DNA from: Chloroflexota bacterium
GTDB taxonomy: Bacteria; Chloroflexota; Dehalococcoidia; Lucifugimonadales; JADFKI01
NCBI GenBank assembly: GCA_027623195.1
Contig: JAQBUT010000005.1
Location: 64,001-128,000, forward strand
Length of the DNA stretch: 64,000 nucleotides
Direction of reading: 5' to 3'
A model generated the notes under the pieces. The model was not told the DNA's origin, ran no database searches, and was given only the letters and a program-made list of their open reading frames with translations. Shown here piece after piece: positions 2,745 through 31,349 of the stretch. The first letter of the stretch is position 1; each line of letters starts with the position of its first letter. Both the position numbers and the translations under genes were made by a program.

Positions 2745-4505
2745 TTAGAATTCCCCAATGGTCCGGCTATTCAACGGCTGAACTGGCCGTGCGTTGCCTC
2801 CGAATATCGACATGAACTTATCCATCTGGGCCTTGGAGGCCTGTACCGGCTCCTGTACTACGAACCACTTAACGCCTTCCGAACACGGGGGGGTGGTAAG
2901 CGAACCATCGAACGCGAAGTATTGAGCCTCGCTAGGGAGGATGTCCGTAATGCTGATTCTAAGGTCCGAAGCTACGTTGCCCTCTTCTCTGGGAAGGAAG
3001 TCCCAGAACTTGGCGAAGAGAGGGTTCTCCTCGCCGCTTTCGAATAGCACGCCGATGACGCCAAGACCGCCCCCGGCGTTCTTGTGGACCAGGTGCATTT
3101 CCATGGGGTACCTGCCGCCGTCCACGGAGTTTTCGCTAGGTGTATGGAAATGGAACTGCAGAAGGTCGTACTCTCCACCGTCCAGGTAGGCCACGCTGCC
3201 TGAATCGTAGTTAATCTGGATTGTGTGGCCGTTGTTAAGAATTGTTACGACCGTATCGCCGTAGTTAGTGAAGACGGAATTATCGGCGCCGACTGTAAAT
3301 CTCGAGTCGATGTCAATTGGAGATTGCTCCACCCCGGTCTTGCAGGCGATGTAGTCGTCGGCCAGGTCTCCCCAGTAATTCGGGCCCGAATTGCCCTCGT
3401 AGGTCCAGTGAGGAGGGCCATCACCATGATCACCATTGCTAACCGTGGTGTCTCCGTGGTCAGGAGCGACCCCATGGGCATCGCCAGTGCTCCCGCCGGA
3501 AATGAGTCTTGCATGCAGAGGCTGCACCGGGCGATTGTTGTGCCCCAATATTCCGTTGAAAGCCGAGATCTGATCCCCGGACATCTCGATTGGGGTGCTC
3601 ATGACGTTCCAGTTCACGCCTTCGCTGCATGGCGGCGTGGTGAGGGAACCGGAGTATGTATAGATCTCCCTGTCGTGAGGTAGCATGGACTCGACGTTTA
3701 CGTTGACGCCATGAACCTCTTTTACCTCACCTGCGCCGTGAGGCAGGTTTGCAACAAGCGACTGGAAGAAGGGGTTGGAATGACCCTCTTCGATGAATAC
3801 GCCAACTACGGCCAGTTCGCCGCTCGCGCTCTTATGTACCAGGTGTCCCTCCATAGGGTAGTTCTGGGAGCTAACCTGATGCTCAGAAGGCGTATGGAAG
3901 TGGAACTGAAGCAGCTCGTACTGCTCGTGGTCGATGACTATCGAGCTGCCGGGCGCGTAATTCACCTGCAAAGTGTGGCCGTTGTTCAGGATGCTCAACG
4001 GCACGTCGTTGTAGTTGAATTGAATGCTCGCTGGCTGGGCAAAGGCCGAGCCGGCAATGTCAATTGGCGACTGGCTGGTGCCCGCCTTGCAGGCGATGAA
4101 CTCGTCTGCCAGGTCTCCCCATTTGCTCGGACCGAGGTCTCCCTCGTAGGCCCAGTGGGGCGCGGCGCTGCCATGATCCGTGCTGGCAGGAGCGGCATGG
4201 CCCGTAGCAGGTGCTGCATGGTCTGTACTGGCTGGTGCAGCATGGCCCGTAGCGGGAGCGGCATGGCTGTCGGCGGGAGCAGCGTGATCCGTGCTGGCAG
4301 GTGCAGCATGTGTATCTGAGGTCGCGACGCGCGACACCCTGGTCCTAGTCCTGGCACCGCTTTCCGCATCGCTGCTATCGGCAGCAGAAGCGGAAGTGCC
4401 ACAGCCCGAAAGGACTAACAAAAGGGCAAATGCCAGCGCCGATAAAGCGATGGCATACCCTTTGCCCTTAAAAAGGGCCGTTCTAAGGTTTTGATCACTG
4501 ATCAT
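2745..4505 (-). CDS. Lipoprotein with two alpha-carbonic anhydrase domains and a His/Ala/Pro repeat linker
   Basis: Lipobox LSGC. Two copies of HWxYEG...QSPIDI...NNGHT...QFHFHTPSE...ExHLVH...GSLTTPPCSEGV...NxRPVQPL. Confidence 0.93.
   Translation of the reverse strand: MISDQNLRTALFKGKGYAIALSALAFALLLVLSGCGTSASAADSSDAESGARTRTRVSRVATSDTHAAPASTDHAAPADSHAAPATGHAAPASTDHAAPATGHAAPASTDHGSAAPHWAYEGDLGPSKWGDLADEFIACKAGTSQSPIDIAGSAFAQPASIQFNYNDVPLSILNNGHTLQVNYAPGSSIVIDHEQYELLQFHFHTPSEHQVSSQNYPMEGHLVHKSASGELAVVGVFIEEGHSNPFFQSLVANLPHGAGEVKEVHGVNVNVESMLPHDREIYTYSGSLTTPPCSEGVNWNVMSTPIEMSGDQISAFNGILGHNNRPVQPLHARLISGGSTGDAHGVAPDHGDTTVSNGDHGDGPPHWTYEGNSGPNYWGDLADDYIACKTGVEQSPIDIDSRFTVGADNSVFTNYGDTVVTILNNGHTIQINYDSGSVAYLDGGEYDLLQFHFHTPSENSVDGGRYPMEMHLVHKNAGGGLGVIGVLFESGEENPLFAKFWDFLPREEGNVASDLRISITDILPSEAQYFAFDGSLTTPPCSEGVKWFVVQEPVQASKAQMDKFMSIFGGNARPVQPLNSRTIGEF
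4165..4320 (-). repeat. Coding tandem repeat, six HAAPA units in the carbonic anhydrase linker
   Basis: SDTHAAPASTDHAAPADSHAAPATGHAAPASTDHAAPATGHAAPASTDH; boundaries approximate. Confidence 0.85.
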
Positions 4506-4621: not shown

Positions 4622-5093
4622 CTAATTTCAATCGCTATGAAAAGTCGTTGCATTTTTTTGACGATGTAGTCTCATATAAACGACAGAAACCGTCATAAAC
4701 GTGATATCTGTACTTGTATGGGAGACTAACGGCTGAGGCTATTACCTATTTCTGCGCGAGGGGACGGCGGCGGTGACATTTCCCGCCGGGCACCGACTCA
4801 AGGGTCCTGGGCATAGGCTGGAGGCACTTAATGGGTTTCACTGAGTGCGCGACAAGGCCTTTTCCCATCCGAATCTCAGTCTGGCCTGAAGGGGCTGTGG
4901 GCGCGACTTAAATCCGTTGAGCAATTCACAAATGCTTCCTACACGGAGGAAGTCGTTCTCGGATTTACCAGACCTAGAACGTCTCGTCAGGAAATTGACA
5001 CCAGTCCAGAGCGGGTGCTACGGTCTCCGCATCCTACACGTGCTTTCAGACGTCAGAACAATGCACATGGAATATCGATCAGAGGGAGAGTTC

Positions 5094-5906
5094 ATGGTTT
5101 CACAAGGCAAGCGGTTGCAGGGAAAGGTCGCCATAGTGACCGGCGCAGGTTCAAGGGGACCGGGAGTTGGGACCGGCAAGGCCACGGCTACGCTTTTCGC
5201 GCGGGAGGGGGCCAAGGTACTCCTGGTAGACAACGTAATCGCACGAGCCGAAGAAACTCTTGCTTCCATACTTTCCGAAGGGGGCGAGGCATCAGTCATA
5301 GAGGCCAACGTAACCGTCGAGGCGGAGTGCGAGCAGATCGTTCTCCAGGCTGTGGAGCGCTACGGCGGACTTAACATCCTCTTCAACAACGTTGGCATTG
5401 GCGCGCCAGGCACGGTGCTGGACGTGACGGAGGAGGATTTCACGCGAGTCATCGATACGAACCTCAAGAGCATGATAATGCTGAGCAAATACGCTGTGCC
5501 CAAGATGATAGAGGCGGGGTCCGGCTCGGTTATCAATATGTCGTCAATTGCCGGCATAAGAGCGGGAAGCAGCGGGGCCAGCATTTCCTACGCCGTTTCC
5601 AAAGGTGGCGTAATAGCGCTCACAACTCAGATGGCTGTGCACCACGGACGACAGAACGTTCGCGTGAATTGCATAGCGCCAGGACCGCTTTACACACCCA
5701 TGGTGGCACATCGGTTGTCCGAAGAGGCACGGGAGCTGAGACGAAAGAGCAATCCCCTGGGATTAGAGGGGACAGCCTGGGACATCGCGTGGACGGCGCT
5801 ATTCCTGGCCAGCGACGAGGCTCGATGGATTACGGGCGTTACCCTGCCCGTAGACGGAGGCGTGCTGGCAACAACACCTCTCTCAATGCTGGAACACCTG
5901 CGGTAG
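5094..5906 (+). CDS. SDR family NAD(P)-dependent oxidoreductase
   Basis: VAIVTGAG..GVG, NNVG, YAVSK, VNCIAPG, LPVDGG. Start placed at ATG 5094 after AGGGAG. Confidence 0.93.
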   Translation: MVSQGKRLQGKVAIVTGAGSRGPGVGTGKATATLFAREGAKVLLVDNVIARAEETLASILSEGGEASVIEANVTVEAECEQIVLQAVERYGGLNILFNNVGIGAPGTVLDVTEEDFTRVIDTNLKSMIMLSKYAVPKMIEAGSGSVINMSSIAGIRAGSSGASISYAVSKGGVIALTTQMAVHHGRQNVRVNCIAPGPLYTPMVAHRLSEEARELRRKSNPLGLEGTAWDIAWTALFLASDEARWITGVTLPVDGGVLATTPLSMLEHLR

Positions 5907-27484: not shown

Positions 27485-27916
27485 ATCTTTTGGAAACTCC
27501 GATTCAATTTGTTATGGACGGCTTTGCGGACGAGCAATAGCGCTCTAGAACCATTCTAATTGCGAGGCTTATGAACGGTCAATGCAGCCAGGTAAAGGCC
27601 TTGAACGGAGATATTGGGCAATCAAGAAAGGTGGATTTATTATCAGTACATACTCATATATTGACACTTAACTTAATGAAAACATCTTATTATGCTCTGC
27701 AAACTTAGCTTAACACTTACTTATCTTGTTTTATGAGTATAGGTGTTTGTGAGTATTGCACTCCCAATATATTGCGGGTTTAAGAATTTCGCACTGGCTG
27801 TTAAGAATTCAATTTTCAGAGTAATGCAAAGTTTCGTTCATCTCAGGACGATCAATCTCCATCACCCACGAATAACCGCTAGACCGACATCAGTAACGAG
27901 GAAGGAGCGTAACGCT

Positions 27917-29501
27917 ATGAAACAATCGGAAGTTCACTGCGTTGTCCCGGCGGACCCAGACACCCAAGCCATAATAGATCGTTCGAGAAACCGCGTAATT
28001 GGCGGCGAGGCACTGCCCGGCGAGGTGCCAGGTGGCTCGGACATACTCGACAGTCGCAGATTCACCTTAATCTCTAGTCGCCCCGCAAAAACCAGAGCCG
28101 ATACGTTCCTGGCAGGCGCAGCGGATTTCGCACCAATCACCGGCACCAAGAACGTGCTTGTGCTTCTTGTCGATTTTTCGGACTTCCCAGGCACCAGGCC
28201 GCAAAATGACTTTTCGGATCTTCTCTTTTCCAGCGGGACCTATGCCACGGGAAGTATGAGGGACTTTTATCGGGAGGCCTCCTACAACAAGCTCAACGTC
28301 ACGGGCACTGTAAACGGAACCGGCGGAGGCTGGTATCGCGCGCCCCAGCCGAAGAGTTTTAATGCGGACAACAACTACGGCATTCATGGCGCTTATCCAA
28401 AAAACGCCCAGAAATTAGTAGAAGACGTTATCGACCTCGCCATTGCAGACCCAAATGTGAATTTCGCTAACTACAGCAACGGCACCGGCGCCGTGGAGGC
28501 TCTGGTAGTTATCGCCGCAGGCATTGGGGCAGAGCAGACGTTGAACACAGGCGACATCTGGTCTCACAAATGGACAATTTCATCGCCTCGGACCATTGAT
28601 GGTGTACAGGTAAGCAAATACTTCATCGCACCGGAGAACGGGCGCGTGGGGGTGATGGCCCATGAATTGGGTTCATCTGTTAATGGGATGGCCGGACCTT
28701 TACGACACTGACGGGAGCTCTCGCGGCACTGGCAGGTGGGACCTGATGGCCGGTGGAAGCTGGAACGGCAATCCTGCAGGGGACACTCCTGCGCACCCGA
28801 CGGCGTACCTAAAAGCTCGGGCTGGCTGGATAAGTCCACCGACTATCACCAACGCTCAACAGGACGTGACCGTCCTGCCTTACGGCAGCAATGCTCAGGC
28901 CTACAAGCTGCCCGTGGGTAGTTCCAGCAGCAAAGAGTACTTTCTGCTATCCAACCGCCAGAACATAGGGTTCGATGCGGCTATACCGGGACAAGGGCTG
29001 ATTATCGAGCACATTGATGAGAATCAGTCCAACAACAGCGACGAAAACCATTACCTGGTCGATATAGAGCAGGCGGACGGCCAACGAGACCTTAACATCG
29101 CAGCCAATTCCGGGGACGCCAACGACCCCTACCCCATTGCGAGCAACAACGCATTCACAGGAAGTACCAGCCCCAACAGCAATGCATACAGCGGATCGAG
29201 TTCCAACATATCGGTGACCAACATTCAGCGAGCTGGCGCCAACATCACTGCGAGAATTAACGTCGGGGGTGTGGCCGCCAAATCCTGGTACTACAACAAA
29301 ACTGTGCAGGCCACATACGCCACATACGTAACCCAAGTGGCATATGGCAATTTTAGCGGGCTGGGCTGGAGACGCATAGCCCCTGGATCCAGTGACGCAG
29401 TGACCAAACTGTTGGACCTGCTAAACGAGGCATGCGCAAACGGTCGCAAGGTGCACGTGTACGGGGACGGGACCTCCATATACAACGCATATATGGTCTA
29501 G
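27917..29501 (+). pseudogene. M6 (immune inhibitor A-like) metalloprotease with C-terminal ~70-aa domain; one extra base at ~28672
   Basis: VLLVDFSD, SMRDFYREASY, IWSHKW, WDLMAGGSWN, KEYFLLSNRQ. Removing one T restores HELGHLLMGWPDLYD. May be a true lesion or a sequencing error. Confidence 0.88.
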
Positions 29502-29573
29502 TGATTGATCGGCGGACAAAATGAGGGATCGAATCGTAGAGAAATCTGAAAATTACACCAAAAGGAGCAAGTT

Positions 29574-29801
29574 ATGAAGTGGTATACCAACAAGAAAGTG
29601 TTGGCAACGTATGGCAACTCCAGCTCCCAAGTCGCGTATGCGAATATCAGCGATGTAGGGTGGATACGAATAAAAACCGGGGCTACGGATGCTGTGACGA
29701 ATATATTTTCCATGATGAACGCCGCCTGCGCCAACGGCAAACTGGTCCACGTAGGGGCTGATAGCAACAATCAAATAGTTTTGGCCTATTTACTGGCTTA
29801 G
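29574..29801 (+). CDS. 75-aa protein paralogous to the C-terminal domain of the upstream M6 protease
   Basis: RBS AAGGAG. WYTNKKVLATY/WYYNKTVQATY, QVAY/QVAY, GWIRI/GWRRI, DAVT/DAVT, ACANGKLVHV/ACANGRKVHV align. Confidence 0.88.
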   Translation: MKWYTNKKVLATYGNSSSQVAYANISDVGWIRIKTGATDAVTNIFSMMNAACANGKLVHVGADSNNQIVLAYLLA

Positions 29802-29899
29802 GGCAGCCAGAGAGCATTATTAGAGGAACTCTTGTTGCTGCTAATTGATTTATGCACATCTGGCCGCGACGCGCGCGAATTTCTACTGGAGGGCTGATC

Positions 29900-30697
29900 G
29901 TGGACGCACAAGTGATCATAAACATATCTGGAAGCCCTGGGGACCAGGCCGGTTCTGTCGAATCCGAAGCACCCCTAAGCCTCGAACGTTTGGCCGCCAT
30001 GGGCGGAGCCGAGGGTTCCGACGATTTTGCTGCACCCATGGAGTTAGAAAGACTGGCTGGCGCGGCGATGGGAGGAGGCGATTGGTCTGCTCCGTTGGCG
30101 CTGGAGGATTTATCTCAGATGGCCGCCAAAATGGATGAAGGTGAAGGTACCCCGCCCGTGAAACTGGAATCTCTGGCCGCGATGGCCGATGGCCAGGAAA
30201 TCGGGGACGGCCTGGCACCGCCACTAGACCTGCAGGAACTAATCGCTATGACCTCGGGAGTGGCCAATATCAGCGCGGCTGTACCCGCAGAACTATCCGA
30301 ATTAGCCGCGATGGCGTCCGGCACAGCAGGTGATGCCGAAGGAATCCCAATGGAGCTAGAGCAGCTTATCGCTATGACTTCTGGCGGAGCGTAAGCCGAT
30401 ACGGGAATGCCGCTGGAACTGGAGCAGCTTGCCGATATGGCTGTCGCCTACGGAGAAGACGCTGGACTGCTAGCCCACACCGAGCTTCACGAGTTGGAGG
30501 CGATGGCGGCGAACGCTGGTGAAGGCCAGATACCCGAAGACCCTTTGCAACTGGAGGCCCTAGAGGAAATGGCTTCTTCTGAGGAGACCGATGACGGCCA
30601 TGAAGATGATCAATCGCAGGGGGTCGAGGACCACGCCAACGAAGGACTTAATCATCCGCAGTCTAGCTTTATCCTCTATTTAAGGGGTAAACGTTAG
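29900..30697 (+). pseudogene. Acidic repeat protein (~10 PxxLExLxxM units), interrupted by in-frame TAA at 30392-30394
   Basis: GTG after GGAGGG. ORFs 29852-30394 and 30407-30697 share a frame and the repeat register continues across the stop. Confidence 0.72.
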
Positions 30698-30707
30698 AAA
30701 GTGGTAC

Positions 30708-30756
30708 ATACGAGTTCCATCTGCCGAGAAGCCCTCTCGGCAGATGGAACTCGTAT
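30708..30756. repeat. Perfect 22-bp inverted repeat (5-nt loop) after the M6 module
   Basis: ATACGAGTTCCATCTGCCGAGA-AGCCC-TCTCGGCAGATGGAACTCGTAT. Confidence 0.9.
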
Positions 30757-30856
30757 TAATGACAGATTCATTTCCCCGCCCAACCGCCGAGTTCTCAAGC
30801 GTCCGACAGCCTTCGACGGACCGACCATCTTATAGTTCTGGACAGGGGGTGCCGTA

Positions 30857-31323
30857 TTGCTGGCACGTGCCATTCTATATATCATTGCATCGACAGTTGC
30901 GGCTGGTTGCTCTGCGAATGCATTGCCATCACCCGGTATATCTCCCTAACTTCGACGCCGTTTGTTGAAGAACCAGTTGAAGAACCAAAGGTTGAAATCT
31001 CCAAAGGACCTACGATGGAAATAATCGGAGTGGTGGTTAGCGGCGGTGACGTAAGCCCAACGGGAATTTCCGATGGCCCGCACAGATTTCAATATGATGT
31101 GCGACTACAGGATGGCTCTGTCGTAAAGCTGGCCTACACTGCCTTCCCACCATCGCCTGCCGGAGACATTGAGAACGCAAAGATAATGCTGAATTTCCAT
31201 GAGGGCGTCATTAAGCCGGGACATCATGTGCAGGCACAGGGGACCTACAATCCCGATTCCAACACACTGACTGTCAAAGACGAAGGCAACTTCATTGAGA
31301 CCTCCTCAGATGCACCTGGATGA
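30857..31323 (+). pseudogene. Putative lipoprotein with small beta-barrel-like domain, frameshifted near 30945
   Basis: TTG-started LLARAILYIIASTVAAGC (lipobox-like) stops at 30947-30949; the body continues in ORF 30907-31323. Confidence 0.5.
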
Positions 31324-31349
31324 AACGACGGGTGTTCCCAGCCAGCCAA

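Follow-up and report, generated by a model that had tools for sequence, protein, structure and literature searches.

Interchangeable proteases fused to a small AB5-B-like OB domain in a sporadic bacterial gene module

Protease-carrying AB5 toxins include the subtilase cytotoxin SubAB and EcxAB/CfxAB, and AB5 toxins bear Sec signal peptides on both their A and their B subunits. A second described carrier of related fold is CipA from Photorhabdus (PDB 7XHS), a cytoplasmic tetramer. Its helices form a bundle at the axis, a layout shared by the LT-IIb pentamer, and an N-terminal arm lends stability to its lattice (PMC9530169). The protealysin-emfourin operon encodes an intracellular protease together with its own inhibitor and has been proposed to act in interbacterial competition (PMC9505478). 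In the Cry2Aa operon an acidic tandem-repeat helper, Orf2, is encoded with the toxin and was proposed to be an assembly framework (PMC5371835). The effector-associated domain (EAD) is a small domain that is found attached to effectors as well as encoded by a second gene, and it has been read as a homotypic adaptor (PMC7159879).

The module described below shares with AB5 toxins the B-type OB fold (TM 0.74-0.81 between the free domain and AB5 B subunits, Z up to 10.8), the position of an enzyme gene beside a small B-like gene, and subtilase and metzincin cargoes. It differs in that its enzyme is fused to a B-like copy, whereas the AB5 A subunit is a separate, non-covalent chain; its proteins have no signal peptides and cover at least seven cargo families; a repeat gene and a cargo-matched partner gene are added; and its hosts are environmental bacteria of several phyla, with 7-19% identity to the solved structures in the top rows of the search and no Pfam family in common. 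With CipA it shares the strand-helix order, the cytoplasmic location and a Z score of 9.8, the ring of the module being a predicted one. The N-terminal arm of CipA is absent from the OB domain family, the first strand of the domain model beginning at residue 2, and the enzyme fusions of CipA are, in the cited account, engineered only, whereas those of the OB family are natural protease fusions. Since the enzyme is not a separate A chain and neither the signal peptides nor the N-terminal arm are present, the module is a member of neither group, and its carrier works most like an AB5 toxin or CipA.

The other described systems resemble single parts of it. Protealysin-emfourin encodes a protease with its inhibitor, as the module may do, and a protealysin-like M4 cargo occurs among the fusions of the module, but that operon, as far as its account goes, has one cargo family and is described without an OB carrier, free subunit or repeat protein. 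The Cry2Aa operon offers an analogy only, its cargo being different and no ring subunit being named in the source. EAD systems also have the small domain fused and in a second gene, with copies closest to own-lineage paralogues, but the cited account places them around MoxR/vWA, STAND or GTPase cores, whereas the module has no recurrent core and its adaptor is an OB fold. None of seven proteins matched the PADLOC anti-phage models. The initial annotation had not recognised the genes as a described system, and no description was found in the literature searched, a scope that ended at subscription journals and supplements; the domain could be listed in neighbourhood tables that supplement comparative-genomics papers. 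The folds themselves have been described before; what appears to be new is the system, with its unannotated domain and the logic by which cargo and partner are paired.

The analysis started from a window of 64,000 nucleotides, by which we mean the whole stretch of DNA that was analysed. The features of the locus are listed here.

27485..31349, no strand: accessory islet, whole module; the flanking genes are 174 bases apart in congener G002
27560..27916, + strand: AT-rich leader, probable promoter region (GC 0.40-0.42 against about 0.57)
27917..29501, + strand: gene for a metalloprotease of the M6 family that has a Cys-bearing propeptide and, at its C-terminus, an OB domain (Pfam Peptidase_M6 matches both pieces)
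29283..29498, + strand: OB (B-subunit-like) domain in its fused copy, which is 54% identical to the free ORF
29574..29801, + strand: intact 75-aa protein, the free OB-fold copy, which falls into the structural class of AB5-B and CipA (AF2, Foldseek, VIA)
29900..30697, + strand: acidic low-complexity repeat gene with an N-terminal alternating hydrophobic strand and 10 PxxLExL-type repeats
30708..30756, no strand: perfect inverted repeat of 22 bp that separates the third gene from the fourth and is specific to the window locus
31015..31323, + strand: fourth gene, encoding 102 aa with a generic OB fold; a candidate for the cognate inhibitor of the M6 protease cargo

Most of what had been read from the letters alone was borne out. 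The three co-oriented genes start at 27917, 29574 and 29900, each behind a Shine-Dalgarno-like site; the leader is AT-rich; the protease tail is paralogous to the 75-aa ORF (54% identity over 61 aa, E 3e-24); 10 repeats of the PxxLExLxxM type were counted in the third gene; and none of the genes has an N-terminal hydrophobic stretch of signal-peptide strength by a hydrophobicity heuristic. Promoter-like sites in the leader were as frequent as expected by chance (4 against 3.9). A hairpin had been described as closing the unit: the perfect inverted repeat is there (z -9.6), but it is not the end, since the co-oriented fourth gene lies beyond it. As a conserved terminator the hairpin was rejected, with no terminator call and a stem of at least 12 bp at the same place in only 1 of 57 relatives. 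A 12-bp tandem duplication lies at 30964-30987 upstream of the fourth gene (ORF4), and one of its copies is missing in a second strain, from an estuary study.

The M6 gene of the window is split in two by a frameshift near 28670-28680, within the zinc-binding motif, so the intact HExxH of its relatives is not found here; intact relatives of this protease have 514-531 aa, and an intact relative, P0020, matches TIGR03296 with E 1e-69. In the repeat gene a stop codon interrupts the reading frame at 30392-30394. An assembly error as the cause of the frameshift was ruled out, because no indel was seen at the site in contigs of 4/4 runs from two studies (one run possibly being the source sample). 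Programmed frameshifting was also rejected: no slippery run was visible by eye, the relatives are continuous, and the second strain carries a further nonsense change of its own in the same protease gene. In that strain the repeat-gene stop is absent and an indel lies near the 3' end of the repeat gene. Between the two strains the islet shows 13 non-synonymous or nonsense coding differences against 5 synonymous ones, near the neutral expectation. Judged by these lesions, the window copy is a decaying islet that no longer makes active protease, and its function has therefore to be read from relatives.

Homologues of the domain were collected with a two-row profile search, which returned 131 cluster representatives (128 true, 3 spurious), whereas a word-based search started from the 75-aa protein alone gave back nothing but the query. 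Proteins of 85 aa or less made up 76 of the 128 representatives, and in 48 of the 52 longer ones the domain is C-terminal. The domain had no match in Pfam, NCBIfam or a PDB sequence search, nor in viral contigs, plasmids (one query) or phages (one query). An AlphaFold2 model from 64 rows reached pLDDT 96, with the order strand-strand-strand-helix-strand-strand. Among the Foldseek matches listed, all were AB5-type B subunits, the best being LT-IIb B (E 6.6e-4, TM 0.78), and SLT_beta and subtilase-cytotoxin B are among the nearest named clusters of the Atlas (0.76), which serves as no more than a lead. In a wide VIA search four folds were tied: LT-II B (Z 10.8, rmsd 2.4, 75 aligned), a pertussis subunit (Z 10.0), CipA (Z 9.8, rmsd 2.0, 73 aligned) and the OB prodomain of pro-protein-glutaminase (Z 9.8), followed by SilF (9.1) and generic OB folds (at most 8.1). 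As the prodomain and SilF score in the same range, the fold is no proof of a ring.

The fused and free copies track each other within loci. For 56 of 79 fused copies the free copy of the same locus ranked in the top tenth of 82 free copies, and mean identity was 0.49 for own-locus pairs against 0.37 otherwise, although the loci compared are not independent and recent duplication alone could give this similarity. A quick, weakly resolved tree placed fused and free copies in paired clades and had a single carrier lineage bearing different cargoes. Given a ring-forming fold class and copies that track each other, co-assembly of fused and free copies is plausible. In the alignment, helix positions 49-50 and position 61 vary with the class of copy, often Cys-Glu and Tyr in fused copies and often Ser/Thr/Asn-Ala in free ones, hinting at separate roles in a mixed ring.

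The proteins to which the domain is fused are protease-like. A Pfam family was assigned to 74 of 93 longer homologues, and every one is a peptidase: subtilase (S8) 23, M6 21, matrixin (M10) 15, astacin 9, thermolysin-like (M4) 3, papain 2 and PF13529 1, the last of which we take to be C39-like. Among the fusions found in loci, 45 of 53 matched a peptidase family; seven of the other eight form a second M6-like subtype (M6b) with an intact HExxH, and one is an unclassified protein. The profile and the listing of fusions that the initial annotation had proposed thus yielded 128 domain carriers and a protease cargo in most locus fusions, yet its framing as an M6 system had to be given up, M6 being only one of at least seven interchangeable cargoes. 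By a crude N-terminal hydrophobicity heuristic, not SignalP, 0/45 full-length fusions reached the level of three control leaders, and the free ORF scored 0.7. An N-terminal Cys motif in 16/17 cargoes of the first M6 subtype (M6a) is in line with a cysteine-switch zymogen, as far as a motif can suggest it. Peptidoglycan-binding domains occur on 14/15 M10 cargoes, which is weak support for a weapon because matrixin propeptides have this fold anyway. Three proteins (P0104, P0098 and L047:3-1007; alignment A10) share a cargo of about 365 aa with conserved His-Gly and Cys motifs and had no Pfam or PDB match and no solved relative; it is probably an unclassified cysteine peptidase, and from the His-Gly and Cys motif only we presume it to be C25/caspase-like.

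Loci were selected by the domain motif alone and not by their neighbours, a procedure by which two-copy loci are likelier to be picked up. They comprised 12 from named genomes and at least 121 from metagenomes; 42 short ones were excluded, 91 with flanks (L013-L103) were analysed, and dropping nine near-duplicates left 82. Two domain copies within 200 bases were present in 75 of these 82, typically a protease-fused copy followed by a free one, with a median gap of 49 bases. Where there was room after the free copy, an acidic, Pro-rich and aromatic-poor ORF followed in 61/70 cases against 4/104 control gene ends, so the three-gene neighbourhood that had been suggested for checking turned out to be widespread. 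The named-genome hosts are Rhizobiaceae, Pyrinomonadaceae, Halomonas maura, Nitrosomonas marina, other Gammaproteobacteria, Hyphomicrobiales, Granulicoccus and Arthrobacter, and by phylum the hosts belong to Pseudomonadota, Acidobacteriota, Actinomycetota, Bacteroidota and other lineages. Intact loci are available in cultured isolates of Halomonas maura, Nitrosomonas marina, Granulicoccus phenolivorans and Arthrobacter sp. The module is sporadic across phyla and lies in unrelated contexts: the domain was found in 1/400 genomes of the phylum and in none of 60 relatives, and all domain copies were confined to a single locus in 5/5 named genomes tested. Among 89 flanking ORFs of 31 longer loci no export, lysis or membrane-crossing gene recurred, nor did any sensor, NTPase, vWA or nucleotide-signalling gene, modifying enzyme or transporter.

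Some copies stand outside the module. L053 and L078 have a free copy without a protease, that of L078 together with a repeat gene, and L076 and L087 have a fused copy without an adjacent free one. Upstream of its M6 module, L029 has another free copy (4761-5385, minus strand), which is divergent, is accompanied by a short repeat gene of its own and lies behind a peptidoglycan-binding enzyme. Extra peptidase-like ORFs (by eye) without OB tail were noticed downstream of the repeat gene in L024, L092 and L096.

A fourth gene follows the repeat gene in many loci, and its family goes with the cargo. Counted over 51 de-duplicated rows (10 dropped) from loci with a partner match or room for one, a chagasin inhibitor was found in 6/6 papain loci (Inhibitor_I42, E 3e-18), a YbaY/YscW-like gene in 10/11 astacin loci and one of two small OB families in 14/15 M6a loci, fractions that are inflated because short loci were kept when the partner was present; none of these families was found in 10 M6b, two S8, one M10 or two M4 loci. 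An inhibitor next to the protease is thus indicated by family in the papain loci and by position only for M6 and astacin. Four loci with both an M6 and an astacin protease (L013, L016, L018 and L021) have both partners with one free-domain gene and one repeat gene, which indicates that the latter two are shared and the partners belong to each enzyme. ORF4 of the window has a homologue in the same slot after the M6 module of L029 (E 1e-22) and belongs to a family of 16 members; ORF4 was not found in 400 genomes of the phylum. Its model (pLDDT 84) matched generic OB folds, and the matches listed named no known inhibitor, a result that leaves room for one. From its position alone, in two loci, it is a candidate cognate inhibitor of the M6 cargo.

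The other M6a partner family ('APN') is unannotated and has an Ala-Pro-Asn motif; a relationship to ORF4 was considered and rejected, no homology being detectable (hhalign probability 0.2). The signal-less YbaY/YscW-like family and the Ala-Pro-Asn family are candidate new protease inhibitors; examples of the three partner families (chagasin, YbaY/YscW-like and Ala-Pro-Asn) are L019:7092-7445, L021:4397-4741, L021:6501-6803 and their relatives. Most partner genes are cytoplasmic by appearance, and L029 carries a lipoprotein-type relative of ORF4.

The repeat gene varies in type between loci. An N-terminal alternating hydrophobic strand was found in 55 of the 70 cases and a basic tail in 36/61 complete repeat ORFs, and no conserved core was seen in the repeats. 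The helical motif occurs 2.3 times per 100 aa in papain loci and 0.08 times in M6a loci; repeat type appears partly to track cargo or lineage, which speaks against a purely generic scaffold. The initial annotation had also considered the repeat protein as a protease inhibitor. This role is now unlikely, because a separate cargo-matched fourth gene exists and the two-protease loci carry two partners and a single repeat gene, and a protease-specific inhibitor is accordingly disfavoured.

We suggest tentatively, with a little less than even chances, that the module is a mobile, cargo-swapping protease delivery device, in which a cytoplasmic ring would be bundled by the repeat protein, silenced and released as a weapon. 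Its steps differ in probability. Co-assembly, taken alone, is likely: free OB subunits and at least one protease-tethered subunit would join in the cytoplasm. The product would be a ring of four to five members, comparable to the pentamers of AB5 B subunits or the tetramers of CipA; in this 'A-B plus free B' particle one protomer would carry the enzyme through a covalent link. It is evenly balanced whether the disordered, multivalent repeat protein would then bind the rings and bundle them into a larger stored assembly, replacing the N-terminal arm that cross-links CipA rings. The propeptide and the cognate inhibitor would silence the enzyme in the producer and its kin, which is highly likely for the papain-chagasin pair and moderately likely for the others. 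Exit by lysis or vesicles, without a dedicated exporter, after which the ring would bind a surface and the protease would attack neighbouring microbes or grazers, has slightly better than even prospects. Two stand-alone relatives of the domain (P0033 and P0079) have apparent signal peptides and a low-complexity linker; together with the lipoprotein-type ORF4 relative they indicate that parts of either kind are able to function extracellularly. Against a weapon stand the lack of a recurrent export or lysis gene among the flanking ORFs, the mostly cytoplasmic partners, and the lack of a partner for M6b, S8, M10 and M4 in the loci counted.

The same parts could be arranged otherwise. The free OB protein might form a CipA-like crystalline or condensed inclusion into which fused copies load zymogens, with the repeat protein as a crystallisation factor like Cry2Aa Orf2, the enzymes, once released, serving nutrition or matrix turnover and no receptor being bound by the ring. 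CipA is, with its Z of 9.8, tied for the best non-toxin match, and the cargo fusions have no signal peptides; CipA is cytoplasmic and accepts engineered enzyme fusions (10.64898/2026.05.10.724141), and Orf2 is described as an acidic 11-repeat protein required for regular Cry2Aa crystals (PMC5371835). Such a depot is nonetheless unlikely, as the free domain is without the arm to which the cited text ascribes the stability of the CipA lattice (PMC9530169), and a protease-only, often partner-matched and sporadic cargo looks to us more like conflict than housekeeping. The OB domain could also be an EAD-like homotypic adaptor in an intracellular proteolytic switch for dormancy or cell death on stress or infection, the repeat protein clustering zymogens for proximity activation or titrating them. 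All parts without signal peptides and mostly cytoplasmic partners would suit this, and fused and stand-alone copies that are nearest own-lineage paralogues match the EAD logic (PMC7159879). We hold the switch to be about as improbable as the depot, for no sensor, NTPase or nucleotide-signalling gene recurs, the PADLOC models were matched by 0/7 proteins and some domain and ORF4 relatives carry export signals. The cargo families are moreover, as we assume, typical degradative zymogens and not caspase- or trypsin-like effectors.

Most improbable is a pair of enzyme and substrate without a ring. Here the OB domain would act as a monomer in recognition or as a chaperone, the repeat protein would be a substrate cut at many sites or a source of peptides, and the free copy would compete or assist folding. 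The pro-protein-glutaminase prodomain at Z 9.8 and the variation of repeat type with cargo or lineage are consistent with it, as are four proteins (P0067, P0124, P0130 and P0082) in which an acidic Pro-rich segment is fused ahead of the domain. It is opposed by the finding that seven chemically different protease families go with the same kind of repeat gene and that two proteases may share one, by repeats without a conserved core, and by the lack of a recurrent modifying enzyme or transporter. A bolder form of the delivery reading, possible but rather doubtful, is that the module is a widespread, polymorphic and non-secreted cousin or forerunner of AB5 toxins: at least seven protease warheads would be plugged into a B-type ring through a fused protomer, the rings would be strung on the disordered repeat scaffold as a multi-protease particle, a counterpart of the cellulosome, and an immunity gene would come with each warhead, three new inhibitor families among them (one YbaY-like, for astacins, and two of OB type, for M6).

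With these data an unannotated domain family and a system of three to five genes are defined across several phyla. Should the ring exist, it would connect CipA and the B subunits of AB5 toxins with a device by which environmental microbes naturally load cargo, and it would open the origin of the AB5 design to testing. Independent of the ring, the fourth genes predict inhibitors that act on M6 and on bacterial astacin proteases, and they predict what cytoplasmic YbaY-like proteins do.

Two further observations concern variants of the module. P0067, P0124 and P0130 form a divergent subfamily of the domain, to which a papain fusion without an adjacent free copy (L147, in G227) and P0105, a papain with two tandem domains, also belong. 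In L017, a locus of the two-protease type, the place of the astacin is taken by a tail-only fragment (3186-3476), which suggests decay of the module in other genomes too.
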